Below are positions 12,235-28,979 of a DNA stretch of 32,000 bases, one piece after another. The notes under the pieces are model-generated. The model worked only from the letters and a program-made list of their open reading frames with translations. It was not told the DNA's origin and did no database searches. The DNA is from Sinorhizobium meliloti (GTDB lineage: Bacteria > Pseudomonadota > Alphaproteobacteria > Rhizobiales > Rhizobiaceae), in NCBI RefSeq assembly GCF_017876815.1, contig NZ_JAGIOS010000002.1, forward strand, positions 1,380,001 to 1,412,000, read 5' to 3'. A program made the position numbers and the translations under genes. Within the stretch, counting starts at the first letter, position 1, and every line of letters starts with the position of its first letter.

Positions 12235-13337
12235 TCCCCTTTCTCGACCTAAAGGCGCAATATGCATCGATTAAGGGAGACATCGATGCGGCGGTGATGC
12301 GCGTGCTCGCTTCAGCGGAATACGTGCTGGGAGAAGAGGTCGCACAGCTCGAACGGGAATTCGCGGAATATTGCGGCACGCGGCACGCGGTCGCCGTCAA
12401 CACGGGCACAAGTGCCCTCCATCTGGCTCTGCTGGCGCTTGGCGTAGGCCCCGGCGATGAAGTCATCACCGTACCCTTCACGTTCGTCGCCACGGTGTCG
12501 GCGATCTGTTATACCGGCGCGCAGCCGGTCTTCGTCGATGTTGAGCCGGTGACGCTAACCATGGACGCTACAAAGCTCGAAGCCGCGATCACGTCCCGAA
12601 CGAAGGCGATCATGCCCGTCCATCTTTACGGGCAGATGGCCGACATGAACGCGATCAAGGCTATTGCCGACCGTCTGGGCGTGCCCATTATCGAGGATGC
12701 ATGTCAGGCTCACGGCGCCGAATACGAGGGCCGTCGCGCCGGAAGCATCGGGGTATTGGGCTGTTTCAGTTTCTATCCGGGAAAGAACCTCGGCGCCTGC
12801 GGCGAAGGCGGTATTGTCGTCACCAGCAATGACAGTCACGCGCGCACCGTACGCATGCTACGCGACTGGGGACAGGAACGCCGGTACCATCACGTGCTCA
12901 AGGGCTTCAACTACCGGATGGACGGCATTCAAGGTGCTATCCTGCGTGTAAAACTGAGGCATCTCAACAACTGGACGCAATCGCGCCGCGCCCATGCAGC
13001 CCGCTATTCCGCGCTGCTGGCTGGATCGAACGATGTGAGAGCGCCCTTAGAGGCTGCCGACCGGCGCCACGTCTACCACATTTATGCGATCCGGTGCCGG
13101 GATCGCGAATACTTGCAAAGGGCGCTGGCTATTCAGGGCATCCAATTCGGTTTGCACTATCCCATTCCGGTGCATCTGCAGAAAGCGCATGCTGACCTCG
13201 GCTACACCCCTGGAGATTTTCCGAGATCGGAGTCTGCGGCCCGCTCGGTACTATCGCTGCCCATCTACCCGGAAATGACCACGAGGCAGATCGAAGAGGT
13301 TGCGTCGGCGGTGGAGCAGGAGGCCCATGTCCATTGA
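12231..13337 (+). CDS. DegT/DnrJ/EryC1/StrS-family PLP-dependent sugar aminotransferase (WbpE/WlbC-like)
   Basis: 368 aa with IPFLDLKAQY..., GTSALHLALLALGVGPGDEVITVPFTFVAT, IIEDACQAHGAEY and SFYPGKNLGA (PLP Lys context). ATGA overlaps the upstream gene. Confidence 0.92.
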   Translation: MIPFLDLKAQYASIKGDIDAAVMRVLASAEYVLGEEVAQLEREFAEYCGTRHAVAVNTGTSALHLALLALGVGPGDEVITVPFTFVATVSAICYTGAQPVFVDVEPVTLTMDATKLEAAITSRTKAIMPVHLYGQMADMNAIKAIADRLGVPIIEDACQAHGAEYEGRRAGSIGVLGCFSFYPGKNLGACGEGGIVVTSNDSHARTVRMLRDWGQERRYHHVLKGFNYRMDGIQGAILRVKLRHLNNWTQSRRAHAARYSALLAGSNDVRAPLEAADRRHVYHIYAIRCRDREYLQRALAIQGIQFGLHYPIPVHLQKAHADLGYTPGDFPRSESAARSVLSLPIYPEMTTRQIEEVASAVEQEAHVH

Positions 13338-14031
13338 ACGCCCCGCGACTTGCCGAGTTGTTCCGGCGGTGCATGGCCGCCGTGAAGCCGTCGGCGACCC
13401 TCCGTACCAAATGGAACTGGTCAAGGAGCTCAGACGGGCCTACGGCCCCGGCGGGCTGGTTGAGCTTTACGGTCGCTTCTCGACGGGCGACGGCTTCACC
13501 GACGCTCTGATGCGCAAGGTGATCTGGCAGAGCGCCGCGAGGCGTTGCGGGAGCGGTCTGCAGGTGGGCAGCGGAGCCGGCTTCAAACATCCGGAGACCT
13601 TCGAGATCGGCGACGGCGTGTTCATCGGCGCGCAGGCCTATGTGCAGGGCCGCTACGACGGGAAATGTTTGATCGGCGACAATGTTTGGATCGGGCCGCA
13701 GGCATATCTCGACGCGCGCGAGCTCGTCATTGAGGAATTCGTTGGATGGGGGCCGGGCGCCAAAATTCTCGGATCCAGCCACACCGGCATCCCTGCCGAC
13801 GTGCCGATCATCCGAACCGACCTAGAAATCAAGCCCGTCTACATCGGCGCATGGGCCGATATCGGGACGAACGCCACCATCCTGCCCGGTGTCACGATCG
13901 GCAAAGGGGCGCTCGTGGGGGCCGGCGCCGTCGTCGTCTCTGACGTTGCGGCTTTTTCCGTCGTTGCGGGGGTGCCCGCGAAATTCCTGCGCTGGCGGGG
14001 GGATTCTGATCCGTCGCCGGCGAAACGATGA
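13327..14031 (+). CDS. Hexapeptide-repeat (LbH) acyl/acetyltransferase
   Basis: C-terminal hexapeptide repeats (IGAWADIGTNATILPGVTIGKGALVGAGAVVVSDVAAFSVVAGVPAKFL). The maximal ORF starts at 13300. ATG 13327 is preceded by AGGAGG and overlaps the upstream stop by 11 nt. Confidence 0.8.
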   Translation: MSIERPATCRVVPAVHGRREAVGDPPYQMELVKELRRAYGPGGLVELYGRFSTGDGFTDALMRKVIWQSAARRCGSGLQVGSGAGFKHPETFEIGDGVFIGAQAYVQGRYDGKCLIGDNVWIGPQAYLDARELVIEEFVGWGPGAKILGSSHTGIPADVPIIRTDLEIKPVYIGAWADIGTNATILPGVTIGKGALVGAGAVVVSDVAAFSVVAGVPAKFLRWRGDSDPSPAKR

Positions 14032-14046
14032 GCAACGGGGGCCTTG

Positions 14047-15021
14047 ATGAGAAACAAACGAGTACTGATCACGGGCGGGGCCGGCCTCATAGGTTCGCAC
14101 ATTGCCGATGTCGTCGCTCGCGAAGAGCCTCAGGAGATCCTGATCCTCGACAATTTTGTTCGCGGCAGGCGGGAAAACCTCCATCAGGCAGCGAGCACAG
14201 GGCGGGTGAGGATCATTGAAGGCGACATCCGGGATCGGGCTCTTCTGGCGAGAGTGATGGACGGCGTCGACGTCGTGTTCCACCAGGCGGCCATTCGCAT
14301 CACCCAATGCGCCGAGGAGCCAAGGCTTGCCTTCGACGTGCTGGCCGGGGGCACCTTCGATGTTCTCGAAGCGGCGATCAAGGCAAGCGTGTCGAAGGTG
14401 GTGGCCGCTTCCTCGGCCTCCGTGTTGGGCTTGGCCGAGAGCTTCCCGACGACCGAGGATCATCACCCCTACAATAACAGGACCATTTACGGCGCCGCCA
14501 AGGTTTTCAACGAGGGGCTGCTCCGCAGCTTCACTGAGATGTACGGCCTCAACTATGTCGCGCTCCGCTACTTCAACGTCTATGGGCCGCGCATGGATGT
14601 CCACGGCGTCTATACGGAGGTGCTGATCCGCTGGATGGAGCGCATTGCGGCCGGACGCCCGCCGATTATCCTGGGCGACGGCACTCAGACCCTGGACTTC
14701 GTGCATGTCCGCGATATTGCACGAGCCAATCTTCTGGCGGCGAAATCCGGTGTCACGGACGAGGTGTTCAACGTCGCTAGCGGTACGGAGACAAGCCTCA
14801 AGGATCTTGCTCAACTGCTCGCCCGCATTATGGGCTCATCGATCGAGCCTCAGTATGAGCCGGCGCGGAAGGTGAACGCGGTCACGCGCCGGCTGGCCGA
14901 CATGCGCAAAGCGGAACGGCTTCTGGGCTTCAAGACCGAGATTTCGCTCGAGGAGGGCCTGCGCGAGCTCATCGGGTGGTGGCGGCGCGAGCGCGCCTCG
15001 GCAGGGGGAGAGGCGGCATGA
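14047..15021 (+). CDS. NAD-dependent epimerase/dehydratase (extended SDR family)
   Basis: Contains VLITGGAGLIGSH (Rossmann), ASSASV...YGAAK (S/YxxxK catalytic set) and GDGTQTLDFVHVRDIA. ATG 14047 lies 6 nt after GGGGG. The track start at 14044 is TTG. Confidence 0.9.
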   Translation: MRNKRVLITGGAGLIGSHIADVVAREEPQEILILDNFVRGRRENLHQAASTGRVRIIEGDIRDRALLARVMDGVDVVFHQAAIRITQCAEEPRLAFDVLAGGTFDVLEAAIKASVSKVVAASSASVLGLAESFPTTEDHHPYNNRTIYGAAKVFNEGLLRSFTEMYGLNYVALRYFNVYGPRMDVHGVYTEVLIRWMERIAAGRPPIILGDGTQTLDFVHVRDIARANLLAAKSGVTDEVFNVASGTETSLKDLAQLLARIMGSSIEPQYEPARKVNAVTRRLADMRKAERLLGFKTEISLEEGLRELIGWWRRERASAGGEAA

Positions 15022-16211
15022 GGCATGCATCGCACCAGCTTCCGGTCGCCAAGCCCGTGCTCGATGAGCGGGAGGTGGAGGCCGTCCGACGCGTTGTCCT
15101 TTCGGGTTGGGTCACTCAGGGCCCCGAAGTAGCGGCGTTCGAAAGCGAATTCGCCGACTTCGTCGGCGCGCCGCACGCCTGCGCCGTTTCGAACTGCACA
15201 AACGCGCTTCACCTCGCCTTGAAGTGCGTGGGTGTCGGCGCCGGAGACGAAGTCATCACGGTCAGTCACTCCTTCATCGCGACGGCGAATGCCATCCGTT
15301 ACTGCGACGCGCTACCGGTTTTCGTCGACATAGAAACGAGCGGCTACAATATGGATCCCGATCTGGTCGAGGCAGCAATCACGCCCCGCACAAAGGCAAT
15401 CCTGTGCGTGCACCAGCTCGGCATGCCTTGCGACCTTCGCCGCGTTGTCGAGATCGCTAAACGGCATGCCATTCCGGTGATAGAGGATGCCGCCTGCGCC
15501 GCCGGAAGCGAGATCCTATGGCAAGGCCAATGGGAAAGAATAGGCAAGCCGCACGGCGACATCGCATGTTTCTCGTTCCACCCTCGCAAGGTCGTAACCA
15601 CCGGCGACGGCGGCATGCTGACGACTGCGAACGTCGAGCACGATCGAAAGTTCAGGCTTTGGCGCCAGCATAGCATGAGCGTTCCGGACACCGTCCGACA
15701 TGGCGCGAGACAGGTGATCTACGAGGGCTATGCGGAGCTCGGCTACAATTACCGCATGACAGACTTACAGGCGGCGATTGGACGTGAGCAGTTGAAGAGA
15801 CTTGGTGCGCTTGTTTCGCGGCGAAGGGAACTGGCGGAACAATATACGGAGCGCCTTTCCCCGGTTGCGGGGCTGCAGACGCCGGGCGAGCCCGCCTGGG
15901 CCAGGAGCAACTGGCAGAGTTATTGCGTGGGACTGTCCGAGTGGATTGACCAGCGCGAGACCATGCAGGCGCTGCTGGATTGCGGCATTTCGTCCCGCCG
16001 CGGCGTCATGAACATCCATCTGGAGAAGGCCTATGTTGGAAGCGAAACGCATAGAGCTGCCACGAGCCTCACACGAAGCGTCGTTGCGCAACAGACATCG
16101 GTGATCCTGCCCCTCTTTGCGCAGATGTCAAACGCCGATGTGGCGCTAGCAGTCGACACTCTTTTATCCATCATCGCTGTCGCCTCGCCAACAGCCTTGC
16201 AGGCGCTCTGA
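15018..16211 (+). CDS. Second DegT/DnrJ/EryC1/StrS-family sugar aminotransferase
   Basis: Contains PVAKPVLDEREVEAVRRVVLSGWVTQGPEVAAFE, NCTNALHLALKCVGVGAGDEVITVSHSFIATAN, VIEDAACAAGSE and SFHPRKVVTTGDGG. ATGA overlaps the SDR stop, and GGGGGAGAGG lies upstream. Confidence 0.9.
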   Translation: MRHASHQLPVAKPVLDEREVEAVRRVVLSGWVTQGPEVAAFESEFADFVGAPHACAVSNCTNALHLALKCVGVGAGDEVITVSHSFIATANAIRYCDALPVFVDIETSGYNMDPDLVEAAITPRTKAILCVHQLGMPCDLRRVVEIAKRHAIPVIEDAACAAGSEILWQGQWERIGKPHGDIACFSFHPRKVVTTGDGGMLTTANVEHDRKFRLWRQHSMSVPDTVRHGARQVIYEGYAELGYNYRMTDLQAAIGREQLKRLGALVSRRRELAEQYTERLSPVAGLQTPGEPAWARSNWQSYCVGLSEWIDQRETMQALLDCGISSRRGVMNIHLEKAYVGSETHRAATSLTRSVVAQQTSVILPLFAQMSNADVALAVDTLLSIIAVASPTALQAL

Positions 16212-16237: not shown

Positions 16238-17746
16238 TCATGCCGAGCGTGAAAACCAGCCCTTTAGTGCCGCGGGCAGTGACGCGATAGGCACGAGTTC
16301 GGTGAGCACCCGAAGAGAGTAGACCCCGCTCAACGCGGTCATGAGGAGGCCGAATACAGTTGCCGGCCAGAGCGGCAAAAGGGCGAGGGCGCCAAAGACG
16401 AGCGCGGATGCGGGGAAAAAGATCAGTCCGAGCCTGCGATTTTGATCCGACCAGCGAAAGCCCGAGAGCCGCCGTACGATGATGTAGATCAGCAGGCTAT
16501 GCCAGATATAGAGCCCGAAGAAGGCAGCGCCGGCACCCACCGTCCCAAAGGCTTCGACCAGGAGCCAGGCGAGCCCGATATGTGCCGTGGTCGCCGCAAC
16601 CTCTGCCCAGAAGAAGGCGGCCTTTGCGCCCTTGGCGAGCACGATGAAGCCCATCGGCCATGAGATGATCCGTAGCATCATTCCGAGGCAGATCCAGCGG
16701 ACGAGGTCCACCGCGTCATAGAACTCGGGCGAATAGAGGACCCTTACGACCAAGGGAGCGGCGGTCAGCGTCGCGATCAAGCCCGGACCAGCAAGGAGGA
16801 TACTGATTTCCGCCTGTTCGTTGACAAGCCGATTGCACTCGGCGTTATTCTTGGCGATCGCCGTCAAGCGTGGGTAGAAATCGGTTCCCATTGCCTGCAG
16901 GATGAAACCGGCATAGAGGCCGCCAAGCGTCCACGCGGCCTGGTAGAGACCCGCAGCGGCAATACCTTCTGCTTTGAGGACGATGATGCGGACCGCATAC
17001 GCCGCGCCGAGCGTCAGGAACCCGCTGATCATGAAGATGGCGCCCAGCTTTAGGAGAGCAGAGACTTCCCGCCGAACGTTTAGCGTTGATATTGCGCTGA
17101 CGCTTATGCGTATCTTCCTGCCGTACCACCAACTGGTCGCGAGTGCTGCCGCGGCGACGGCGACAAGAGAAACGACGATCCCGGACGTGCCAAGGACGTA
17201 TATCAGCGGAATGCTGATCACCGTGCTGAAGAAGGCGCCAAAAACATTGATGCGGGCGAGGCTCACGATGTCTCGCATGCCCTGAATCAATGCGATTTGG
17301 CCGTCAGCCAGCAGCCGAAAGAGGATGGACGCCGAGAGCAGGACGATGCCGGCGGCGTAGCTGTGGTCGCCGAAGGTGAAGTTCGCAACCGGAAGGGCGA
17401 GCGCTGCGAGAAGCAGCGCACCCAGCAAACCCAACACGACTGACGTCCGTCGAAGAACGGTCGCCGTGCGGGCAACTCTCTCGGCGTCACCGCTGCCGAC
17501 TGCTTCAGCGATCTGGCGCACGCCACTCGCCTGTATCCCAAGGCCGGCGATCGCATAGGCGATATCGGCGATCGAGCTGTAAAGGCCCATTAGCCCGACA
17601 CCCGCCGGGCCGAGGAGTATCGCTATCGCCTTGTTGCGAATGATGGCAAACAGCACCGTTATCACAGACGAGCCGCCGATCAGCGCCGTGGCCTTGAGGA
17701 TCTGGGTGTAACTTCGTTCACCCTCGGAGTTTGCGCGCGGTTTCAT
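16238..17746 (-). CDS. wzx: Polysaccharide flippase, Wzx-type (MOP/PST family)
   Basis: About 500 aa and very hydrophobic, with multiple TM segments. The typical N-terminus is ILKATALIGGSSVITVLFAIIRNKAIAILLGPAGVGLMGLY. The track ORF extends to 17950, but that extension overlaps rfbD and is Pro/Ser/Ala-rich. ATG 17746 is taken as the start, which overlaps the rfbD 3' end by 29 nt. Confidence 0.8.
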   Translation of the reverse strand: MKPRANSEGERSYTQILKATALIGGSSVITVLFAIIRNKAIAILLGPAGVGLMGLYSSIADIAYAIAGLGIQASGVRQIAEAVGSGDAERVARTATVLRRTSVVLGLLGALLLAALALPVANFTFGDHSYAAGIVLLSASILFRLLADGQIALIQGMRDIVSLARINVFGAFFSTVISIPLIYVLGTSGIVVSLVAVAAAALATSWWYGRKIRISVSAISTLNVRREVSALLKLGAIFMISGFLTLGAAYAVRIIVLKAEGIAAAGLYQAAWTLGGLYAGFILQAMGTDFYPRLTAIAKNNAECNRLVNEQAEISILLAGPGLIATLTAAPLVVRVLYSPEFYDAVDLVRWICLGMMLRIISWPMGFIVLAKGAKAAFFWAEVAATTAHIGLAWLLVEAFGTVGAGAAFFGLYIWHSLLIYIIVRRLSGFRWSDQNRRLGLIFFPASALVFGALALLPLWPATVFGLLMTALSGVYSLRVLTELVPIASLPAALKGWFSRSA

Positions 17747-18647
17747 AGACCTCACTCGCGTCCACTGCTGCGCGGCCGGGCGCGAGGATGCGCGCGACGA
17801 CCGTTTCGGTGCTTGTTTGCCAGTCAGGCAGACGCCAGCCGAATGTGCCGGCGAACTTGTTGGTGCAAAGGCGCGAGTCCCGGGGGCGCCGGGCTTTCGT
17901 TGGGTAATCGGCGGTGGCGATATCGTCCACAATAGCGGAAGGTCCGCCATGGTGCCGGCTTACGGCCAGGACGTGGCGTGCGAAGCCGGACCAGTTACTC
18001 TCGCCCGTTCCCGTGAGATGGTAGGTGCCGAAGCGATCCTGCCTCGGCTGCGTCGCGATCAGGAGGATCGCAGCTGCAACATCCAGCGCCGACGTCGGGT
18101 TACCGTACTGGTCCGAAACGACCGACAGCCGTTCCTGCGCTGAGGCGAGCCTCAGCATCGTCTTCACGAAGTTGGTGCCAAAGGGGCTGTAGACCCAGCT
18201 TGTCCGCAAGATGATGTGACGCGCTGTAATGCTTGCAACCGCTTCTTCCCCTGCGAGCTTGGTGGCGCCGTAGACGGTGCGCGGCCCCGTTTCGTCGTCT
18301 TCCCGGCGTGGTGTGCGGTCGTCACCGGAAAAGACGTAGTCGCTCGACAGATGGATGACCGGTATATCGAGCGATGCCGCGGCTTCCGCGACACAGGCGG
18401 CCCCCGTGACATTGACGGCACGCGCCAATGCTGGCTCGTCTTCGGCGCGATCGACCGAGGTATAGGCGGCCGCAGAGATGACGATGTCGGGTCTTGCTGC
18501 AATGATGGCTTCCCGCATTGGTATCGGTCTCGTGAGATCGAATTCGGGGCGGCCGATGGCAAACAACTCAACGTCGCGTGATCCCGCCGCGACCTCCCTC
18601 AGGCTGGTGACGAGTTGGCCGGTCGTGCCCGTGGCGAGCACTCTCAT
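17718..18647 (-). CDS. rfbD: dTDP-4-dehydrorhamnose reductase
   Basis: Starts [16 protein letters not shown], followed by the SDR-like fold and STDYVF-like SSDYVF. ATGA overlaps the rfbB stop (start 18647). It is the last gene of an rfbACBD run. Confidence 0.9.
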
Positions 18648-19711
18648 CGCCCGGCCACCGCTCTGCCGAGCCGCTCGCCGCGATAGTTCCGTTCGCGGAT
18701 CGGCCGCCACCACCAGCTATTGGCCAGATACCAGTCGATCGTTCGCGACAATCCCGTCTCGAAGCTTTCCAACGGTTTCCAGCCAAGTTCGCGTTCGATC
18801 TTGGAGGTATCCATGGCATAGCGTTGGTCGTGGCCCGGTCGATCGTCGACAAACGCGACAAGGTCGCGATAGCTTCGGCAGCTTCGCTGCGGCTGCTTTT
18901 GATCGAGAATATCGCAGATCGTCTGGACGACCGCGAGGTTGGAGCGCTCGGAGCCTCCACCGATATTGTAGCTCTCGCCGGTTACGCCGTTCGTCGCGAC
19001 CAGATCCAGAGCGCGTGCGTGGTCGTCAACATAAAGCCAGTCGCGAATATTGGTGCCGTTGCCGTAGACCGGCAGCGGCCTTTCCTCCAGGGCATTCAGA
19101 ATGATCAAAGGCACCAGCTTTTCCGGAAAGTGAAACGGGCCATAGTTATTGGAACAATTGGTAATGACGACGGGCAGGCCAAAGGTGTGATGCCAGGCGC
19201 GAACAAGGTGATCAGATGCAGCCTTTGAGGCGGAATAGGGCGAGGATGGAGCATAGGGCGTCTCCTCGCGGAAACTGTTGTCATCAAGGGAAAGATCGCC
19301 GAACACTTCGTCAGTTGAAACATGGTGGAAGCGGAACCGTTCGGCTGCCGTTGCCGGTAGGCTGCGCCAATATTTCGTTGCCGCCTGGAGCAGCCTGAAC
19401 GTGCCAACGATGTTTGTCTCGATGAACGTGCCAGGTCCGTCAATCGACCGGTCCACATGTGTTTCCGCGGCAAGATGCATAATGCGGTCGATACGCTCCG
19501 CAGCAAGGACATCGGCCGCAGCTGCCTCGTCGCAAATGTCGCCCCGGACGAACCGGTAGTTCGGCAAGGCCTCGATTTGCCTGAGCGATGCCGGATTGCC
19601 GGCATAGGTGAGCTTGTCGAGGTTGATGACACGATTGCCTGGATCGGCCACAAGGTATCGGCAGAGCGCGGAGCCAATGAAACCGGCGCCGCCGGTGACG
19701 AGGATGTTCAT
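18644..19711 (-). CDS. rfbB: dTDP-glucose 4,6-dehydratase
   Basis: Contains [58 protein letters not shown] and [14 protein letters not shown]. Confidence 0.95.
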
Positions 19712-20292
19712 AGCCGGGCCCCCTCCACCGGGAAGTTGAACAGTTCGGCTTGCCCCAGCGGCGGAGCCGCCGCGTCCTTGCCAGACAGCTGGAATTCGGC
19801 AACTGGCAGTGGCCAGGCGATTGCGATCTCGGGATCGTCAAAACGGATCGATCTATCGTAAGCTGGTGAATATGGGTTGGTGACCTTGTAGATCACCTCC
19901 GTGTTCGGTTCGAGCGTCAGGAAGCCGTGCGAAAAACCCTTTGGGATCAGGATTTGGTTCCACTTGCGAGCGGAAACCTCGGCCGCGACCCATTGCGCGA
20001 AGGTTGGCGAGCCACGGCGTATGTCCACTGCGACGTCGAAGATGGCGCCTCTTATCACCCTGACCAGCTTGTCCTGCGCGTAGGGTGAGAGTTGGTGGTG
20101 AAGTCCGCGCAGGACGCCTTTCGCGGCCGAGAAGGAATGATTGTCCTGAACGAAGTGCAACGCGATCCCGGCTTCGGCTAATTTGCGCTCGTTCCAAGTT
20201 TCAGAGAAGAAGCCACGTTCGTCCTCGATCCTGCCCGGCAGGATCTCCAGGACCCCGTCGAGGCCAAGCGATCTGATGACGACGAGGCTCAT
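19708..20292 (-). CDS. rfbC: dTDP-4-dehydrorhamnose 3,5-epimerase
   Basis: Contains [64 protein letters not shown] and [13 protein letters not shown] overlaps occur at both ends. Confidence 0.95.
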
Positions 20293-21167
20293 CCGGCATG
20301 TTCCTCTACCAGCCGGCGGAGGTAGGAGGCGTAGGCCGTCCTGCCGAGCACGCCGGCCCGTCGCAACACGTCTTCGGGGCCAAGCCAGCCCATATCGAGC
20401 GCGATTTCTTCTGGGCAGGCTATCTGGACACCCTGACGGCGTTCGACGGTTCGCACGAAAGAGGAGGCGTCATGCAGACTGTCATAGGTGCCTGTATCGA
20501 GCCACGCATAGCCTCGTCCGAGCTGGCAGACATGCAGCCGATCCTGCTCCAGATAGAAGTTGTTGACCGTGGTGATCTCGAGTTCACCTCGCGCGGAAGG
20601 TCCGACCGACGCAGCGATGTCGACCACATCCTTGTCGTAAAAATAGAGGCCCGTGACCGCCCAGTTGGATTTTGGCCGCGCCGGCTTTTCCTCGATGGTC
20701 ACTGCCTTGCCCGTCCGCTGGTCGAAGGTGACGACGCCGTAGCGCTCCGGATCGTCGACGCGATAGGCAAAAACGGAGGCGCCAGTCTCTCGGGAAGCCG
20801 CCTGCCTGCAGACGTTCGGCAGACCGTTGCCGAAAAAGATGTTGTCGCCGAGTATCATTGCGACATTGCCGCTACCGATGAAATCGCGGCCAATGATGAA
20901 AGCCTCGGCAAGCCCATTGGGGTGCGGCTGTGCGGCATAGGAAAGGCTAAGCCCGAAGACGGAGCCGTCGCCAAGAAGGGCCTCGAAGCAAGGCAGGTCC
21001 CGCGGGGTGGATATAATGAGAATGTCCCGGATACCCGTCAGCATCAACACGCTCAATGGATAATAGACCATCGGCTTGTCATAGATCGGCAGAATCTGCT
21101 TCGAGACCGCGATTGTTAGCGGGTAAAGCCGCGTGCCACTTCCGCCCGCCAATATTATGCCCTTCAT
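20289..21167 (-). CDS. rfbA: Glucose-1-phosphate thymidylyltransferase
   Basis: Contains [51 protein letters not shown] and [16 protein letters not shown] lies 5 nt upstream of the ATG. Confidence 0.95.
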
Positions 21168-21254
21168 CCACGCCTCCCCCTGTCGCTGTCCTATCGCCGG
21201 CCTGTCGTGGGCGTTGTATGGCGCGCGAAATCACGTATGCGCTGGCGAGGTTAT

Positions 21255-22568
21255 TCATTGACTGGCCCGCTCTAGCTCTGGCACGGTCGGACCTACACTT
21301 TCCAGATGCGCCGACGGTTCGACGGCGCGCTGCTGAACCTGCCGCACGACACTGACAACGTCGCCGGGCATCAAGTCCGTTGCTTCGGACGCTGGAAATT
21401 CGGTGGCCTTGCCGTTCACCCGTCTCGTGATGGAATAGGTGGGGGAGGGGCCTTCGGCTGTAGGACCTCCGATGGTTCTAGTCTCGAGAGCCTCGAGCAG
21501 CAGCCTTTCCGTGGTTTCTCGCTTTAGCTTCAACTGGTCCACCTTTTCCTGCTCTGATTGAAGCGCGGCTGCTACTTCCGACTTATGCCTATCATTGAGA
21601 CCCTCGAGATTGCGCGTGGCCTCACTGATATTCTGGCGCGCTCTCATAATGGCGGTGACCAGATCGAGGCGATCGGCGCGGTAGCCTGCAAGTGCCCGCT
21701 CCAGCTCCGATTGACGCGACGCCACGGCCACGCCCTTTTCGACCAGGCTTTTGACGCCTCCCAGTTCCTTTTCGGCTGCTTTGATGCTTGCTTCGGCGCC
21801 TTTCATCTTTACGCCGAGCACGTCGATTTCTTGGTTGTAGAGATCGCGCAGTTCAGAGAGGGACTTCGACTGCCGCTCCAGCGCCTTCAGTCGCGCCGCA
21901 AAGATGACAGTCTCTTGCTCGCGTGCCACGGCGCCAAGTGCTCCATCAATGGCCAAAGAGTCAGAGAAGCTGATCTCTGTGGCACCCGACAGCTCGGCCT
22001 TGAGGCGCGATATCCGGGCATTGCTCCGCAAAAGGGAGTCGCGGATGGTTCGTAGTCCACCCGTCAGAGTTATTTCGGCTTCCGATGATTGTTTGTCGGC
22101 GTCGCGGAAATAGCCGCCGCTCTTCGCCAGTGACTGCAGAACCGTAAGCCCAGGGCGAAACTTGTACTCTCCCGGCGCCGCAACGTCTCCTACGACATAT
22201 ACCGGTGGGTATTCGAGGACCTCGACAACTGCTTCCGGCGCTTCAACGAGCCCGATCTTGGCCTGTAGGCGTCGTGAGATTTCGACAGCAAGTTGTCCTC
22301 TGTCGAGATTGTGCACAGCAAAGGTACCAATGACGGGCAGCGAAATATCACCGGCCTCAGACACGACGTACTCGCCGCCGAGGGCCCATTGCGAATATTC
22401 GCCTCTCGTGGGCATCCACTGTACAATCTTCAGGCGAATTTTGGTTTGAGGAGCAATCTCTGGGGCGCCGGCCACCGCCGGCGTCAACGCGCCGCTGACA
22501 AGGGCGAGTGCAGCCGCAAGGAAAACACTTCGAAGGGAGCTACGGTTAGCACGGTGGGATACGTTCAT
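21255..22568 (-). CDS. Periplasmic polysaccharide export protein, ExoF-like (Poly_export/SLBB N-terminal part plus a long coiled-coil)
   Basis: The signal peptide is MNVSHRANRSSLRSVFLAAALALVSGALTPAVAG. Poly_export-like sequence reads GEYVVSEAGDISLPVIGTFAVHNLDRGQLAVEISRRL, and SLBB-like sequence reads VYVVGDVAAPGEYKFRPGLTVLQSLAKSGG. About 200 aa of heptad-rich sequence follow. The C-terminus has DLMPGDVVSV. Start ATG 22568 lies 5 nt after GGAG; the track start at 22601 is unsupported by an SD. Confidence 0.8.
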   Translation of the reverse strand: MNVSHRANRSSLRSVFLAAALALVSGALTPAVAGAPEIAPQTKIRLKIVQWMPTRGEYSQWALGGEYVVSEAGDISLPVIGTFAVHNLDRGQLAVEISRRLQAKIGLVEAPEAVVEVLEYPPVYVVGDVAAPGEYKFRPGLTVLQSLAKSGGYFRDADKQSSEAEITLTGGLRTIRDSLLRSNARISRLKAELSGATEISFSDSLAIDGALGAVAREQETVIFAARLKALERQSKSLSELRDLYNQEIDVLGVKMKGAEASIKAAEKELGGVKSLVEKGVAVASRQSELERALAGYRADRLDLVTAIMRARQNISEATRNLEGLNDRHKSEVAAALQSEQEKVDQLKLKRETTERLLLEALETRTIGGPTAEGPSPTYSITRRVNGKATEFPASEATDLMPGDVVSVVRQVQQRAVEPSAHLESVGPTVPELERASQ

Positions 22569-22736
22569 TATTTCTCCAACCAGCATAGTCATTCGCCGCA
22601 CACCCGAAGGGAGAGGGGCGCGTCTCGATCGACAAGATCGTCCGCAATCGCAATATGCGTAGGTCCGCGATAGGTTTATGGCTACTTCAAGTGTGAAGGT
22701 TTTGAATAAATTGGAAAGTGGATCGAAGACGGTATC

Positions 22737-22758
22737 GCTTCATCAATATTGATGAAGC
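22737..22758. promoter_or_regulatory. Perfect 22-bp palindrome GCTTCATCAATATTGATGAAGC (candidate operator)
   Basis: The left half, GCTTCATCAAT, is the exact reverse complement of the right half, ATTGATGAAGC. It sits in an AT-rich patch of the 490-bp divergent intergenic region between the exoF-like/rfb/wzx operon start (22568) and the first LuxR-type gene (23058). Confidence 0.5.
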
Positions 22759-23057
22759 AAGGGGACGGCAGGTCCATTCGAAATCAAGCGGTATATCGAT
22801 CGCTCGACTTGACCAACATAAGAACGAGCCCGGCGTCGCAAAGCCGAGCGAGTGTTCGGCCAGTCTCATTCGATCGAGGATGATAGCCGTGTTTATCTAG
22901 TTCGATCGGATGAGGTGGGGCGAACATACTCCGTCGATGCCTGCCCTTCTATGTATACCTCAATCCTTTTGCGCCGTCGTCATCACGCATGGCGAAGGCT
23001 AGAGTCGTCAGCTGTGATCCATAAAGCCGGTCCGTTGTTTGGAGCTCCGGGGAAGGG

Positions 23058-23801
23058 ATGTGCTTGATGAGCAGGCGTGACTATGACAATGCGACGGTCG
23101 GGAGAGTCGCAGCCGCAAAAAATGAGCGGAGGCCCCGACGCGTCATTCTCATCATAAGCAAAACCGGCATAATTTCAGAGAGATTGATCAGTGCTCTCGA
23201 GCGGGAATTCTCTTGGGTGCTTGTCGAAGAGGTTGAGCAGGTTGCCGCGGCGTGCAATGTCTTTGCCCATCCTGTATCGCTCATCCTTGTCGACCCTGGG
23301 ATGATCGACGAAGCCGATGAAAGATACATCGAACTGCTGCGTTTGCACCCAGACGCGCTTGCGGCGGCGATCGAGCCTAATGACGAGAACCTAACTGCAT
23401 CGTTCCTCAAGCTCACCCGTTCGCCGTTGGTACACAGTGTCCTCCCGATGAATCTAAGGCTCGATACATGGTTGTCCGTCATCGGGTTGATGCTTTGCGG
23501 CGGCGACTATCTTCCGCCTGCGCTAATTCTTGACGCAAGAAGGAACGGTCATGCTCCCGGCGGCGGCGCCAAACTGCCTGGCGCACCGATCAACGGGACG
23601 GGTGTCTCGGAGCTGACGGCTCGGGAGCTGCAGATTCTCGAGATGGTTTCCCGCGGTCTGCAAAACAAGCTGATTGCCGCCGAATTCCGTTTATCCGAGC
23701 ACACAGTAAAGATTCATCTGCACAACATTATAACGAAGCTCGGCGCCCACAACAGAACGGAGGCAGTCGCAAGATTTCGCAGCTTGCAAGAACGCCTTTG
23801 A
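23058..23801 (+). CDS. LuxR/FixJ-type HTH regulator with an unorthodox receiver-like N-terminal domain (paralog 1)
   Basis: The C-terminal LuxR HTH is LTARELQILEMVSRGLQNKLIAAEFRLSEHTVKIHLHNIITKLGAHNRTEAV. The receiver-like domain has VILIISK (acidic pair absent) and LILVDPGM (Asp retained). An alternative start is ATG 23067. Confidence 0.85.
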   Translation: MCLMSRRDYDNATVGRVAAAKNERRPRRVILIISKTGIISERLISALEREFSWVLVEEVEQVAAACNVFAHPVSLILVDPGMIDEADERYIELLRLHPDALAAAIEPNDENLTASFLKLTRSPLVHSVLPMNLRLDTWLSVIGLMLCGGDYLPPALILDARRNGHAPGGGAKLPGAPINGTGVSELTARELQILEMVSRGLQNKLIAAEFRLSEHTVKIHLHNIITKLGAHNRTEAVARFRSLQERL

Positions 23802-24573
23802 TCACAGGCGGTCTACGTCACGCCGGCAGGCCCTGGTGATTTACACCACCAAATGGCGCGCGTTTACATGGAGCCTTACGACACGACGCGCTCATTCGTC
23901 GTTGCTAGGGGGAAAGCAGCCCTGCAGGCGACAGGGCTCGGCGCCGCTGTTGGTCATGTCCTTTGGCCGGTCGCGTCTCAGGCCTTCGCCGCGAGCTGAC
24001 ATCGATCGAGGGAGCGGCTCATGACGGGGGTTTCACCGCCCCCGCGTCGAGCGCCGACAGATCGACGGTAGGAGCACTCCTGGTGGCGGGAATAATGCTT
24101 AGAACGCTGACGGGGGCCGTCTCCAGTACCGTCCTGTGGGCGCGGCGACATCATCCGCCGACACCTATGCCACTCCCGATGAGTTCGCCCGGCTCGATAT
24201 CGGCTAGACCGCTCTCAAGCTCATCTGCTTTCTGGCGCGAGCGAAACAGGTTTGAGGCACGTCCGACACCTTGGCGTTCGTTGCCGTCATCCTACATAAG
24301 GTGAATGGCCCGACAAATCGGCTACCTCAAAGGTAGTGGCACTCTCTCATTTCGCTAATTGCAAAGTGCTGGCGGTATCACGTAATCCGAAGGATGACAT
24401 GAGCGAACGTCCGGTGCTTATCGGCCGGCCGCAGTCTAGAAACTATTGTATACTGCTTAATTTTAAGTCGTAAACTCACGGGAACTTTCTTTAAAGAAGA
24501 GTTTTTGTTTAATACAGCTTCGGCGGGATCGTTCCCATCCTCCCTCAACTCTTAAGGAGTTGTCTGAGTAGCC

Positions 24574-25371
24574 ATGACGAAAGGGAGTTCGGCAATGGCT
24601 TCTTTTACACCGAAATTGGAGAACGAGCTGCCATTCGCGCAGGACCAGCACCGCGTAACCAACCCGTTACAGTCAGGCAAGGAAGCGGAACAGCAGCCAC
24701 TTGCAAAGAAGGACAAACGGTGTCTGCTCATCTTTGATGACAGGGCGCTAGGCCGCGAATGTCTGGCGAGGACTCTGGTCGATCACGGCCTCAGGATGGA
24801 AGTCGCTGCTTTCGGCTCGTTCGACGAATGGCAGGAGACAAAGGGCAGCTATCCCGACGTCGGAGCCGTCCTCGTCAATATCGGCGCGCGCAAAGTAGGG
24901 GATGTGACGGCAGACATTTCCAAGCTCGCCTCTCAGTTTAACCCCGCCCCCGTTGTCGTCCTCTCGGACAGCGATGACATCGCCCAGATCCTGCAGGTCC
25001 TCGAAAGCGGGGCACAGGGATATATTCCCGCATCTGTCGGCGTGGATGTGTGCATCGAAGCGATCGCCTTGGCGATGGCAGGCGGCGTCTTTGTGCCGGG
25101 AAGCAGTCTTCTGGCGGCGCGCCACCTGATCGAGGCAGAGAAGCGGGAGACTTCGCCGCTGGCGGGAATGTTCACACTCCGTCAAGCGGAGGTGGTCGAG
25201 GCGTTACGAAGAGGCAAGGCAAACAAGATCATCGGCTATGAACTCAATCTCCGCGAGAGCACGGTCAAGGTTCATGTTCGCAACATCATGAAGAAAATGA
25301 AGGCCACGAACCGGACGGAGGTCGCTTGCAAACTCAATGAGCTGTTTTCAGGCGATGCACGTGGCTCCTGA
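24574..25371 (+). CDS. LuxR/FixJ-type HTH regulator with a pseudo-receiver domain (paralog 2)
   Basis: The HTH is FTLRQAEVVEALRRGKANKIIGYELNLRESTVKVHVRNIMKKMKATNRTEV. The receiver-like domain has LLIFDD and then AVLVNIG, with Asn where the phospho-acceptor Asp is expected. An alternative start is ATG 24595, 7 nt after AAGGGAG. Confidence 0.85.
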   Translation: MTKGSSAMASFTPKLENELPFAQDQHRVTNPLQSGKEAEQQPLAKKDKRCLLIFDDRALGRECLARTLVDHGLRMEVAAFGSFDEWQETKGSYPDVGAVLVNIGARKVGDVTADISKLASQFNPAPVVVLSDSDDIAQILQVLESGAQGYIPASVGVDVCIEAIALAMAGGVFVPGSSLLAARHLIEAEKRETSPLAGMFTLRQAEVVEALRRGKANKIIGYELNLRESTVKVHVRNIMKKMKATNRTEVACKLNELFSGDARGS

Positions 25372-25402
25372 GGCCGGACTGCCGTGGCTCCTGAGGCCGG
25401 AC
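25361..25402 (+). repeat. 19-bp direct repeat GTGGCTCCTGAGGCCGGAC, two copies separated by 4 bp, duplicating the stop codon of paralog 2
   Basis: Copies at 25361-25379 and 25384-25402 are identical. The TGA stop (25369-25371) lies inside copy 1 and recurs in copy 2. Confidence 0.9.
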
Positions 25403-25797
25403 GGCTCCGCCACTTTTTCAGCCGAGTCGGAGCGGGAAATCAGCCGAATCCAGACATTAACGAAGATCAGCGCCCTTGTCTTGGAGGGAACGATGAGTAT
25501 ACCGAGTTAGCTCAAACGGCTTATATCGCCAAAAGTGTAATGTAATAATCGAGTTTAATCATAATGTTTAAATAGTTTCATCTAGATCGGTTCTATGATA
25601 TCCTTCATTCTTAGAATCTCCTGACAGGGACATTAATTGGCGGCCGCTTAGCGCCCTCTTTATTTCTTCTAGTTGCAGGCGACCCGTTGCGGTCGCCTCA
25701 AAAATGCATTTGTGAAACGGTGAGGTGAACCTTCGTTCAGCCGCCCCTCTCGTTTTTATTTGCGCCCGAGTAGTGGCGTGGCGGGGAGATTTCAACC

Positions 25798-26586
25798 ATG
25801 AATTCAGTGGCTCTTTCTTACAACAATACGGCGCTTCATGCTTTGGGCGCATCCTCTCCCGATGAGGCGACCAATGGAGCCCGTGACAACACGGTAGCCG
25901 GTTCGGCGCTGCTCCTGTTGGACAATCGGACGCTCGACAGAGAATGCCTGGCCGAATGCCTCGTTTTGCACGGCCTCGGCATCGAGGTCCTAGCCTTCGG
26001 ATCGGTTGGCGAATGGCGGAAGAACAAGGATCTTCATCCGCCCGTCGCGGCAATCCTCTTGAACATCGGAGGCAGAAAAGTCACCGATCCCAGCAATGCC
26101 TCAGAAATAACCGATCTCGTGACGGAGTTTGGCCCCACGCCGGTCGTGGTCCTGTCTGATTTGGACGAACTGGCACAAATCCTAAAGGCATTGGAGTGCG
26201 GCGTCAGGGGCTATATTCCATCATCGATCGGCTTCGATATCTGCGTGCAAGCAGTCAACCTGGCGCGAGCCGGTGGGACATTCGTCCCTGCGAGCAGTAT
26301 CCTCTCCACTCGACAGATCACGGTGGCTGCTGGGGAGGTGCCTCGGCCGCTAGGGGGGATGTTTACTCAGAGGCAGGAAGAAGTCATCCGGGCGCTAAGG
26401 CGCGGCAAGGCAAACAAGATCATTGCCTATGAGCTCAATCTGCGTGAGAGCACCGTAAAGGTCCATATCCGCAATATCATGCAAAAGCTGAAGGCGACGA
26501 ACAGGACCGAGGTGGCTTACAAGCTTGGCGATATGTTCCCCGCCGAGATTGGAGAGTTGGAGAAACCAGGACTGCCTCAACCGTGA
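25798..26586 (+). CDS. LuxR/FixJ-type HTH regulator with a pseudo-receiver domain (paralog 3)
   Basis: The HTH is FTQRQEEVIRALRRGKANKIIAYELNLRESTVKVHIRNIMQKLKATNRTEV. The receiver-like domain has LLLLDN and then AILLNIG (Asn at the acceptor position). By eye it is about 60 percent identical to paralog 2 over the receiver-like domain and HTH. Confidence 0.85.
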   Translation: MNSVALSYNNTALHALGASSPDEATNGARDNTVAGSALLLLDNRTLDRECLAECLVLHGLGIEVLAFGSVGEWRKNKDLHPPVAAILLNIGGRKVTDPSNASEITDLVTEFGPTPVVVLSDLDELAQILKALECGVRGYIPSSIGFDICVQAVNLARAGGTFVPASSILSTRQITVAAGEVPRPLGGMFTQRQEEVIRALRRGKANKIIAYELNLRESTVKVHIRNIMQKLKATNRTEVAYKLGDMFPAEIGELEKPGLPQP

Positions 26587-26934
26587 GCTTCTTGATCATT
26601 CCAGCAAATGACGGTGAGGGGGATTGTGCAGGTGAATTTCGCTCGTTTCGAGCCGGCGCAAGCACATGAGCCGGGCTCTCGATTCCGTAATCCTACAAGT
26701 TTTCCTATGAAGACGAGCGCGTTGATAGGCGCAACTGGTTCGGGAACATGATGCGCGTTGGTGGTTGGGGCTCCGCCGCGAAGGCGCCCCACGTTGACCC
26801 TGATGCCTGTGCTGCAGGCGCCCCGGCCAGGGACGTTCGATCTGGCCCCTGTCGCCCGTGGCTTAACTTCCCAGTCGCGCTTGACATAAGCTCAGCGACG
26901 ATCGTTCAAGGCGCTTCCTTCCCGACTGAATACC

Positions 26935-27777
26935 TTAGCTCAAGAGATCGCCTGCGCGTGCCGCCACGCGCACATAGACGTCCTCCAGGGGTGAACGTGG
27001 CGCGACGAGTTGATGCGTTGCAAGTCGCAAAAGCGCGTTCAGATGCTCCCTGCCGCCATAGCCAACGGTTTTGGCGAAGGGCTTCATCGAAGTGTGCTCA
27101 CCGACGGGGTAAAGCTGCGCGTACTCCGCGCCGTTCGTGAACTCCTCATAATTGGAGCCCTCGACACGGAAAGTCTCGACCGGGACACCCTCTGCTAAGA
27201 CCGCTTCATGGGTCGCGAGCACGATCTGATAGTATTCGAGCACATCCGAGTCGCCGGGCAGCGCCGGGTCAATCGACGTTCCGTTAACGAGATCACTCGG
27301 CCTGATAAAAACGCCGTCGATGTACAGTGCGTGACCGGAGGAAAGATAGAGGTCTTTGCGGGGCGTTTGCTCGTCAAGGGCGAAACGGCGGATGCGGATT
27401 GGCACCACGCTCTCGCTCCACGTGGATGACGCACGCCGGTAGACGTGGCGACCTATCCATTTGACCGGCAGCAATTCGCCGCGGACCGTCTTGACGAGAT
27501 CGCCTATTCGGAGGTCTTCGATCGCCGTCTCGCCCTTGGACGTGAGGATTGCCGTGCCGCGTAGCAGGCACAGTGGGCCGCCTTTGCCAATGCCGTCGCG
27601 ACCACGGCCAAGGCCTAGATCAATACCCCGCTTTCCGGCCTCCTTGGCGGCCGCTGATGACGTCACGGTAGCGGAGAACGCGGCGAAGGCGGCTAGTCTG
27701 GCTCCCGCCGCGGCCGCCAAGCCGATGAAATGTCTTCGCGCCGTATTCGTGGGTGAGCTTCCTTGACCGTCGGGCAT
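26935..27777 (-). CDS. Tat-signal Hint-domain protein (Hedgehog/intein-like, Hint_2 type), function unknown
   Basis: 280 aa. The twin-arginine motif TARRHFIGLAAAAG is followed by a hydrophobic region and SSAAA. A Gly/Lys/Arg-rich linker follows. The Hint N-terminal block is CLLRGTAILTSKGETAIEDLRIGDLVKT, and later blocks are PVKWIGRH, PIRIRRFAL, LYLSSGHALYIDG, VLATHEAVLAEGVPVETF. AGGAG lies 9 nt upstream of the ATG. Confidence 0.8.
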   Translation of the reverse strand: MPDGQGSSPTNTARRHFIGLAAAAGARLAAFAAFSATVTSSAAAKEAGKRGIDLGLGRGRDGIGKGGPLCLLRGTAILTSKGETAIEDLRIGDLVKTVRGELLPVKWIGRHVYRRASSTWSESVVPIRIRRFALDEQTPRKDLYLSSGHALYIDGVFIRPSDLVNGTSIDPALPGDSDVLEYYQIVLATHEAVLAEGVPVETFRVEGSNYEEFTNGAEYAQLYPVGEHTSMKPFAKTVGYGGREHLNALLRLATHQLVAPRSPLEDVYVRVAARAGDLLS

Positions 27778-28229
27778 ATCTCCATGCTCCTAATTCGAGG
27801 CGTCCCTTCCCTGATGCTATTCTATGCTCCCGGCGCTCTTGGCGAGAATACGCCAATTCGGCAACCGCAGAGCCAAAAAGGAGGATGGATGGTACTTTTG
27901 GAGGAGCCAAGGTTTACGGTCGCCGGTCACTGCAGTAAAAAGTCCTATCGCGGCCTTTTCTGCTGTCTCGAGGTTTCGTCCATGCGAGCCGAGTCCGTGT
28001 CAATGCAGAGATCCGGTACTTTTATCCACATGACAGCAATGTCCAGTGGTGACGTTTTTCCGACATCGGCCGTCAAGAGCGATGGCGTTTGAGCACGATG
28101 CGCGACCGCTGTGGCCGTTCATGGTGGCTCCACTCTGATGGCGAAATCAAAGTGCGTTAGAAGTGCCGTCCGAGCGAGCAATCCTCTCTTTGCACCAGTG
28201 CGGGCTTTTTGAGCGGGAGATGGTGCACC

Positions 28230-28810
28230 CGAACACATGCGGTTTTTCGAGCGCTATTTCATGGTGGTCGGTGCTACGGAGCGCAACTCACAATCAAGGG
28301 CAAGCGACGCCCTCGTACATCAATGCATCGCCTTCGGCATGTATCCGGTCTCTGTACGCGCAGGGTACGGCTCCTGTGGCTCTCGCTCGAGAGAAGGCGG
28401 AAGCGATTGGGCAGCTTGTTCGGGGCGAGGATCCGCGCGCCGGTCGCGTTTCAATCACGCCGAAGACGTTCAAGGATTGCATGGATGGTCTTCTGAACTG
28501 CCTGCTTCCGCACTGGCGGGAAAGGCCCAAGACAGCCGACAGGCTGCGCTCGCCCATACGGTCAGTGATCGACGACGCAATCGCTCACGAATGGGACACG
28601 GCTGGCAATCCGGCTTGCTGGAAGGGCCGCTTGGAGAAAGTGATCCTACGCCGTCAGAAACTTCAGCGCGGGCATCACGCTGCGCTCGCGTATCCGTATG
28701 AAAGATATAGAAGGCCGCTCGATGGCCGCCTTCTATTGGGAACCGCGGACGTTCCACCTCGCGATGATCGCCGGGACTGCTCCGACTTTAATACCGCCAC
28801 CTCGGTTCGC
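28230..28810 (+). pseudogene. Degraded P4-type tyrosine integrase, N-terminal half (frameshifted)
   Basis: Pieces lie in three frames. IKGKRRP, FGMYPVSV and TAPVALAREKAEAIGQLVRGEDPRA match the DUF4102-type arm-binding region (GKRR...LG.YP.VSLA.AR..A...L...G.DP). TFKDCMDG...HWRERPKTADRLRSPIRSVIDDAIAHEWDTAGNPACWKGRLEKVILRRQKLQRGHHAALAY matches the SAM-like core-binding region (...NPA.W.G.L...L....K....HHAALPY). Confidence 0.6.
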
Positions 28811-28979
28811 GCTTGACGTTGTGAAGCAACTCGGAAGCCGTGGCGAAATCGCCGAAGAGGCTGGTCAAACGCTTCTCCTCCTCTTGGGGCAGGCGTTGTC
28901 GTCGGCAAAAAACGTGTATATTCCATACCTTAGAAGAAATTTTCTTGGAAAATTTGTCGGCTTCAACTCGTTCTACCAT
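28788..28979 (-). CDS. Hypothetical small protein (63 aa) in an AT-rich spacer
   Basis: ATG 28979 is preceded by GGGAGGAG with a 4-nt spacer. Local GC is lower than the surroundings. No family was recognised, and the ORF overlaps integrase-remnant sequence on the other strand. Confidence 0.25.
   Translation of the reverse strand: MVERVEADKFSKKISSKVWNIHVFCRRQRLPQEEEKRLTSLFGDFATASELLHNVKREPRWRY

Follow-up and report, generated by a model that had tools for sequence, protein, structure and literature searches.

The stretch of Sinorhizobium meliloti DNA analyzed here, a window of 32,000 nucleotides (NCBI RefSeq assembly GCF_017876815.1, contig NZ_JAGIOS010000002.1, positions 1,380,001 to 1,412,000 of the forward strand), is occupied by a surface-polysaccharide cluster, including a Wzz/BY-kinase pair and a priming sugar transferase, and carries three regulator genes that are the subject of this work. 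All three are intact and lie on the plus strand, as a preliminary description of this DNA had it: p1 at 23058 to 23801 (247 amino acids [aa]), p2 at 24574 to 25371 (a 265-aa open reading frame [ORF]), and p3 at 25798 to 26586 (262 aa). The start of p3 at 25798 is supported, and both public annotation and conserved upstream alignments suggest a later start for p1, at 23067 (244 aa), and a likely start for p2 at 24595 (258 aa), with the ribosome-binding site AAGGGGA. The term paralogous, applied previously to the whole set, holds for p2 and p3, which are 60% identical, but p1 is a distant relative; by BLAST, it shares 31 to 34% with p2 and p3 over the C-terminal half only, and its full-length homology to them is seen by profile comparison alone. 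We refer to the relatives of p1 as family 1 and to those of p2 and p3, the latter being the second member at this locus, as family 2/3.

The domain searches and structure models confirmed the architecture proposed for these proteins, a receiver-like N domain followed by a LuxR/FixJ helix-turn-helix (HTH). The GerE HTH (PF00196) scores 69.9, 58.5, and 62.7 bits in p1, p2, and p3, respectively, against a gathering threshold of 23.5. With respect to the N domains, the Pfam Response_reg model (PF00072) gives p2 a subthreshold score of 20.4 bits (threshold, 30.2) and matches neither p1 nor p3. AlphaFold2 models of p1 and p2, computed as monomers on the family alignments, nevertheless show a (βα)5 receiver joined to a four-helix HTH in both cases, with a pLDDT of 88 for p2 (about 97 in the receiver core) and of 79 for p1 (core, about 90); the fold of p3 is taken from its identity to p2. 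In Foldseek searches, the best matches of both models were regulators of the NarL/FixJ class, namely, LiaR, FixJ, VraR, and RcsB for p2 and ChrA, VpsT, and spr1814, plus CsgD, RitR, and AmiR, for p1. By sequence, the HTHs match the DNA-binding domains of NarL, DosR, VraR, and others. NCBIfam yielded only partial, far subthreshold likeness to NarL, MadR, ErdR, EpsA, CsgD, and similar models. We also considered receptors of the acyl-homoserine lactone type among LuxR proteins and rejected them, since Pfam finds no autoinducer-binding domain (PF03472) in p1 to p3 at an E value of ≤1 and the N domains fold as receivers.

None of the three regulators has a complete phospho-acceptor site, and each family departs from it in its own way. 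At the position of the NarL acceptor D59, p2 has N102 and p3 has N89, as aligned both by phmmer to the NarL structure 1a04 and by MAFFT; p1 has D79, which the alignment and the AlphaFold2 model locate at the end of β3. The acidic pair after β1 reads D55 D56 in p2, D42 N43 in p3, and S34 K35 in p1. After β4, where a Thr or Ser is expected, p2 and p3 carry S131 and S120 and p1 carries E106, and the Lys after β5 is replaced by A153 in p2, S142 in p3, and M131 in p1. Furthermore, Y150 of p2 provides at this site the Tyr of the Y-T pair. These comparisons with NarL and its relatives uphold the residue assignments made in the preliminary description for all three proteins, namely, Asn in place of the acceptor Asp, loss of the conserved Lys, and a retained acidic pocket in p2 and p3, with an Asp retained and the acidic pair lost in p1. 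Judged by the alignments, p2 and p3 are strictly aspartate-less, and p1 is a pseudo-receiver that retains its Asp. Taken as a set, the proteins share with a canonical phospho-accepting receiver only the (βα)5 fold and fall short of it in the acceptor Asp, the acidic pair, the Lys and Thr/Ser, and the Pfam score. No kinase had been seen nearby, and our domain scan agrees with this, as histidine kinase domains (HisKA/HATPase_c) were found neither among the 20 large ORFs scanned in the window nor in nine related annotated loci.

These departures are old and strongly conserved. A search with p2 of 1.8 billion cluster representatives returned 399 relatives at an E value of <1e-30. In the 120 closest family 2/3 representatives, all from Rhizobiaceae or Phyllobacteriaceae, the acceptor position is occupied by Asn in 117, Ser in 2, and Asp in 1, and Lys stands at the Lys position in none; the first acidic residue is Asp in 119 of them, a Pro precedes the former Lys in all 120, and a Tyr or Phe is conserved three residues before it (K-3). 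Even among 127 distant full-length representatives, the acceptor column holds Cys (36), Ser (35), or Asn (24) and never Asp, while the Lys column holds Thr (79), otherwise Ser or Ala, and never Lys; 108 of the 127 keep Asp or Glu as the first acidic residue. The second position of the acidic pair is mostly Gly or Ser in this family, making D56 of p2 unusual. For family 1, with 787 matches and 116 aligned, D79 is kept in 111 of the 116, the first position of the acidic pair is Thr, Ala, or Ser and acidic in none, and the second is mostly nonacidic (Asp in 7). A Leu-Pro-Met sequence is invariant at the place expected for the Lys, and the conserved polar residues are D79, H97, R126, D136, W138, S140, R143, and Y151. 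The S. meliloti protein itself has His126 and Gly143, against Arg in 114 and 109 of the 116 family members, and departs from the family at 4 of 80 conserved columns, compared with a family median of 1.

Profile comparison with hhalign showed the two families to be homologous over both domains (99.8%; E = 8e-30), with D79 of p1 placed opposite N102 of p2, and the motifs IP-x and GG-x-[YF]-x-P around α5 are common to both. On this full-length homology, p1 and p2/p3 represent sister lineages of one pseudo-receiver clade that have lost different parts of the site, and both lineages are widespread in Rhizobiaceae and Phyllobacteriaceae. The dN/dS ratios measured against a 90%-identical allele are 0.20 for p1, 0.29 for p2, and 0.15 for p3, and all three ORFs are intact in divergent strains; on these two grounds, we rejected the idea that they are pseudogenes. 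The earlier wording of crippled receivers, with its connotation of decay, therefore does not fit what are old, conserved families under purifying selection. We found no curated model, source annotation, or paper naming these proteins, and the members of the sequence clusters bear generic names in the source annotation.

A strong indication of what p1 does comes from its genomic neighborhood. Next to it, on the minus strand, lies the presumed target, the export-rml-wzx operon (16238 to 22568), which encodes a Poly_export/SLBB protein, the products of rmlA, rmlC, rmlB, and rmlD, and a Wzx-type flippase. The spacer between the divergent export operon and p1 (22569 to 23057) is a presumed shared control region, and the arrangement recurs in 44 to 45 species loci. 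When we scored the neighbors in 80 species-level loci with a p1-type protein, that gene was divergent from an export protein homolog about 500 bp upstream on the opposite strand in 45, and these 45 loci, which span Sinorhizobium, Ensifer, Mycoplana, Pararhizobium, Rhizobium, and Mesorhizobium, also share the rml, wzx, DegT, and acyltransferase genes after the export gene. Such synteny constitutes strong guilt by association and argues that p1 is the cluster's own regulator.

Family 2/3 genes follow a different distribution. Only about 12 of the 80 loci have a family 2/3 gene at a distance of up to 10 kb from the p1-type gene, and the other 68 do not. A p1-p2 tandem with a spacer of 440 to 780 bp is found in Sinorhizobium fredii, Sinorhizobium shofinae, Sinorhizobium glycinis, Ensifer sp. 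BR816, and S. fredii USDA205; in the first four, the p1-type gene stands between two family 2/3 genes, away from the cluster. In the tree, the downstream family 2/3 gene of these triplets is the ortholog of p2 (67 to 69% identity), and p3 groups with the p3-like gene of S. meliloti 1021, the only one in that strain and part of another polysaccharide cluster. The neighbors of the 1021 gene are GT4 glycosyltransferases, a Poly_export gene, phosphoglucomutase/phosphomannomutase (PGM/PMM), a mannose-1-phosphate guanylyltransferase, and a Crp-like regulator. The gene for this Crp/FNR-type regulator is directly upstream of the p3-like gene (pSymB, ~716.5 to 718.4 kb), and another one is found near the family 1 and family 2/3 pair of Mesorhizobium sp. 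L-8-10; a Crp/FNR-type protein is thus a possible recurring third regulator of such clusters.

In about a dozen loci inspected, family 2/3 genes were located in polysaccharide clusters in every context except the S. fredii-type triplets. On Rhizobium johnstonii pRL9 and Rhizobium etli CIAT652 pC, the gene is divergent from a homolog of the second operon of our window, a six-gene amino-sugar operon on the plus strand (10694 to 16211) coding for an acyltransferase, a Gfo/Idh/MocA oxidoreductase, a DegT protein, a second acyltransferase, an epimerase, and a second DegT protein. It also occurs inside a Mesorhizobium polysaccharide cluster, and three arbitrarily chosen members adjoin flippase/GT4 or dTDP-sugar genes. 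Dedicated regulation of the polysaccharide, as suggested in the preliminary description, is accordingly well supported for p1, by its divergence from the export operon in 45 of 80 species, and plausible from synteny for p2 and p3.

Candidate control elements were found in the noncoding DNA. The 22-bp perfect palindrome GCTTCATCAATATTGATGAAGC (22737 to 22758), the only one of its kind in the window (chance expectation, 0), sits 169 bp upstream of the annotated start of the export gene. About 29 of 44 syntenic loci of other genera retain its left half, GCTTCATCAATATTG, which p1-type loci without the cluster do not have, and this places the palindrome in the control region of the polysaccharide operon. 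A census of perfect palindromes in the 44 spacers singled out only GCTTCA...TGAAGC, and because the right half is unconserved outside S. meliloti and Ensifer, we do not claim the palindrome as a proven dimer operator; GCTTCATCAATATTGATGAAGC is a candidate for an operator or a promoter element serving the export operon, and p1 may bind it. A second element, the conserved block CCTTTTGCGCCGTCG(CG) at 22965 to 22981 on the plus strand, lies upstream of p1, with TCGTTCnTTTGGATGA before it and GGCTAgaGT after it. It is found 90 to 250 bp upstream of the family 1 gene in 29 loci, 6 of them without the polysaccharide cluster, and is therefore a candidate cis element, whether promoter, operator, or leader, that accompanies family 1 genes in every context. 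The string TTTGCGCC, related to CCTTTTGCGCCGTCG, lies 45 bp upstream of p3.

With respect to the other two genes, an alignment of six Sinorhizobium/Ensifer loci revealed a conserved block before the p2 orthologs (24295 to 24400, plus strand) that includes the σ70-like sequence TTGCAA-N17-CGTAAT, uncalled in our generic scan, which may be p2's own promoter. The last ~130 bp of the spacer between p2 and p3 are conserved with the region upstream of the p3-like gene of strain 1021. The presence of separate conserved blocks before p2 and p3 suggests that they are separate transcription units. A generic scan of positions 22400 to 27000 for σ70 promoters and terminators returned nothing beyond shuffled expectation, and a repeat search for a motif common to the three upstream regions returned only short, chance-level matches.

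Both intergenic regions have the lengths given for them earlier (772 and 426 bp), but their characterization as AT rich was right only in part. The p1-p2 spacer has a GC content of 57%, against a window mean of 58.6%, and only its last ~270 bp drop to 44 to 50%, whereas the p2-p3 spacer (25372 to 25797, plus strand) has 50% GC, with a trough of 32% at 25500 to 25599. The first ~450 bp of the p1-p2 spacer (65 to 68% GC) are specific to S. meliloti, with no counterpart in other Sinorhizobium species. Inside this spacer, at 23981 to 24236 on the plus strand, lies the relic of an emrB-like major facilitator superfamily transporter gene, namely, its 5' end, with 72 to 75% nucleotide identity to an intact emrA/emrB-like pair (1021 pSymB, 1.50 Mb) and to other rhizobial replicons. 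Much of the spacer's length is due to this relic, which is not regulatory DNA. At the end of p2, a tandem 23-bp duplication (CGTGGCTCCTGAGGCCGGAC[T/G]GC, twice; 25360 to 25405) straddles the stop codon, and the C terminus of p2 may have been reshaped by it.

The entire 4.4-kb regulator region matches the pSymB chromid of S. meliloti, with an identity of 99.4 to 99.5% to SM11 and related strains and of 96.8% to Rm41; the window is S. meliloti pSymB of the SM11/Rm41 type. The three-gene locus is strain variable. It is carried by about 26 of 46 Sinorhizobium plasmid records; strains 1021, 2011, and BL225C lack it and have only the p3-like gene elsewhere, at 78% nucleotide identity, and strain ml21 carries both the triplet and the counterpart of the 1021 gene. 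On pSymB of ml21, the export gene adjoining p1 is annotated as two pieces, a 540-nucleotide gene and a 675-nucleotide "hypothetical" gene, and p1, p2, and p3 are intact. In strain CP050512, an IS66 element sits inside the regulator region. Past the regulators, the gene order is a Hint-domain gene, an integrase fragment, and an AsmA family gene. The first two of these, a gene for an intein-like Hint-domain protein (26935 to 27777) and a phage-type integrase fragment (28163 to 28816), are directly downstream of p3, as would fit a part of pSymB that is mosaic and varies among strains. Within the polysaccharide cluster, two stretches, 4775 to 6315 (1.5 kb) and 9453 to 10693 (1.2 kb), lack any ORF of at least 150 aa; the place in Rhizobium that matches the second gap is taken by a family 2/3 regulator gene. 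A tblastn search of the window with p1 to p3 found no further copies or relics, including in that gap, and an Rfam scan of the whole window found no RNA family.

Considering these data, we propose that p1, p2, and p3 are probably kinase-independent, NarL/FixJ-type pseudo-receiver regulators of surface-polysaccharide operons. From the observed fold, residues, conservation, selection, synteny, and absence of a kinase, we infer DNA binding, targets, and mode of control as follows. The N domains are pseudo-receivers, retaining the receiver fold without the catalytic set. Most likely, p1 dimers use the GerE HTH to bind within the ~490-bp divergent spacer, from where they would control the export-rml-wzx operon and probably the p1 gene too. 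p2 is the conserved downstream companion of p1 in Sinorhizobium, under an upstream control region of its own, and p3 is an extra family 2/3 copy, the nearest relative of which would regulate the other polysaccharide cluster of strain 1021 by the same logic. Instead of depending on phosphotransfer, the activity of these proteins is presumably set by their amount or by a ligand or partner at the conserved pocket, which would consist of Asp-Asn-Ser/Ala in p2 and p3 and of Asp79, His97, Arg126, and Trp138 in the p1 family.

There are several observations that sit less easily with this proposal. The half-palindrome tracks the polysaccharide operon and not the p1 gene, and it might be bound by some other regulator or act as a promoter element. 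The S. fredii-type triplets are not beside the cluster, which suggests that their targets may be in trans, and distant family 1 genes in Mesorhizobium and Aminobacter adjoin a different operon. The latter genes are divergent from a conserved operon for two proteins without Pfam domains (~615 and ~681 aa) and a fused ABC exporter. Furthermore, the changes R126H and R143G in p1, each the loss of a near-invariant Arg, may signify altered function of this particular ortholog, and p1, with its Asp still in place, may conceivably, although improbably, be phosphorylated. No characterized homolog turned up for either family in NCBIfam, the literature, or the source names.

Alternative explanations differ from our proposal either in how the regulators are switched or in which of them belong to this cluster. 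We consider it highly improbable that the three are ordinary orphan response regulators that receive their phosphate from a kinase whose gene lies elsewhere in the genome. The Asp at the end of β3 in p1 would suit this idea, as would three residues kept by p2 and p3, namely, the first of the acidic pair, the Ser after β4, and the Tyr of the Y-T pair. However, the acceptor Asp is missing from p2, p3, and their family, the Lys is missing from all three, p1 has in addition neither of the metal-binding acidic residues nor the Thr/Ser, and a kinase was seen in none of the inspected loci. A second alternative, that the pocket binds cyclic di-GMP (c-di-GMP), as in VpsT, or a sugar nucleotide or other metabolite and thereby switches dimerization or DNA binding, appears doubtful to us but deserves consideration, given that ligand binding is a documented mode of pseudo-receivers (PMC12632262). 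The polar residues of the former site are indeed strongly conserved (in family 2/3, Asp in 119 of 120, Asn in 117 of 120, and Tyr/Phe at K-3; in family 1, the set around D79), and p1 has VpsT and the regulatory domain of CsgD among its best fold matches. This conservation could, however, be explained just as well by fold stability or a dimer interface, and p1 to p3 lack W[FLM][TS]R, the VpsT motif that opens the helix after α5. A regular-expression search for this motif gave only WLSV at positions 138 to 141 of p1, which is in α5 and has no Arg, and nothing in p2 or p3; a VpsT-like c-di-GMP motif was thus rejected.

As for which genes act together, one scenario is a heteromeric or hierarchical module in which p1 forms mixed dimers with p2 and/or p3, in the manner of RcsA with RcsB, or in which the proteins act in a cascade, each driving expression of the next, so that the operons fire only if several of them are present. 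There is precedent in the heterodimer of BldM and WhiI, atypical NarL-type regulators (PMC12632262); the p1-p2 tandem recurs in five Sinorhizobium/Ensifer species with p2 orthologs downstream, the two families share a full-length homologous scaffold, and every gene has its own conserved upstream region. Nevertheless, a p1-type gene has no family 2/3 gene within 10 kb in 68 of 80 species, family 2/3 genes are often solitary, and the three upstream regions have no common motif. Since members of each family are mostly found without one of the other, a heteromer is not obligatory for either, and we think such a module unlikely. A minor but real possibility is that only p1 belongs to this polysaccharide locus and that p2 and p3 regulate other loci, having ended up here through the mosaic nature of pSymB. 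The restriction of the triplet to about 26 of 46 records, with its absence from 1021, 2011, and BL225C, the location of the nearest p3 relative in a different 1021 cluster and its coexistence with the triplet in ml21, the presence of a p2-like gene (70% identity) near yet another cluster, the transporter relic between p1 and p2, the integrase fragment, and the IS66 insertion in one strain would all be consistent with this. The p1-p2 adjacency is, however, kept across species, and the homologous amino-sugar operon of Rhizobium is paired with a family 2/3 gene and not with a family 1 gene, which links family 2/3 to the same type of cluster. Finally, it would be a rather improbable extension that both families constitute a kinase-free system for surface glycans, widespread in Hyphomicrobiales, in which the pocket has been reused to sense a pathway metabolite or partner protein and in which p1 and p2, where adjacent as in Sinorhizobium, act through a mixed dimer or cascade as a coincidence detector for polysaccharide production.

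Rhizobial surface polysaccharides decide phage sensitivity, stress survival, and host range, and we know of no regulators for the strain-specific polysaccharide clusters of pSymB. The kinase-independent regulators proposed here offer a handle on the control of such a cluster in the form of p1 and the conserved divergent region, and the p2/p3 family marks clusters in Rhizobium, Sinorhizobium, and Mesorhizobium, which should be of use in annotating rhizobial polysaccharide clusters, even if it would hardly surprise specialists. For the question of how pseudo-receivers are switched, they provide two sizeable and cleanly defined families, one with Asn in place of the phospho-Asp and the other with the Asp retained and its surroundings lost. 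Nothing established is overturned, as kinase-independent NarL-type regulators such as VpsT, CsgD, BldM/WhiI, and SecR are well documented; the two families themselves are uncharacterized.

Pseudo-receivers are common (PMC12632262; PMC4395418), and according to a 2025 review, they typically keep the first acidic residue, lose the second, and partly lose the Asp, Thr, and Lys (PMC12632262). The known pseudo-receiver regulators of the NarL/FixJ class likewise have an incomplete catalytic quintet, a GerE/LuxR HTH, and no partner kinase, and their residue pattern matches that of p1 to p3. The p1 and p2/p3 families do not figure among the named examples, and we found no description in the literature of these families as residents of Hyphomicrobiales polysaccharide clusters. 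SecR1 and SecR2 of Aminobacter sp. NyZ550 are Asp-less NarL/FixJ paralogs without a kinase that form constitutive dimers, are unphosphorylated in vitro, and bind their own promoter and neighboring pathway genes (PMC13199381). They are atypical NarL/FixJ proteins like p1 to p3 and come from the same bacterial order as S. meliloti; compared by description, SecR acts on serine-cycle genes and has an Arg-filled pocket (R32 and R81), whereas p1 to p3 are associated with polysaccharide genes and have Asp/Asn or Ser-Lys/Asp pockets.

VpsT of Vibrio cholerae and CsgD of Escherichia coli and Salmonella also combine a receiver-like domain with a LuxR HTH, have no cognate kinase, and are master regulators of matrix polysaccharide and biofilm. 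They are among the top fold matches of p1 and p2, with the sequence likeness confined to the HTH, and VpsT differs in sensing c-di-GMP through the motif that p1 to p3 lack. In enteric bacteria, capsular polysaccharide genes are controlled by the LuxR-HTH heterodimer RcsA/RcsB. Both RcsA-RcsB and BldM-WhiI of Streptomyces are LuxR-HTH heterodimers in which at least one partner is not phosphorylatable; RcsB, however, has a true phospho-acceptor served by a kinase relay, whereas each of p1 to p3 is without a complete site, and what links them here is colocation. The best match to the receiver halves in both sequence and fold is 2qsj, the receiver of a LuxR family protein of Silicibacter pomeroyi (TM score of 0.84 to p2), with which they share the motifs G[YF]IP-x-S and G-x-[IF]-[FV]-[LV]-P. 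It keeps the Lys (GFIPKS) where p2 reads GYIPAS, and to judge from sequence, the 2qsj type is probably the canonical relative from which family 2/3 departed.

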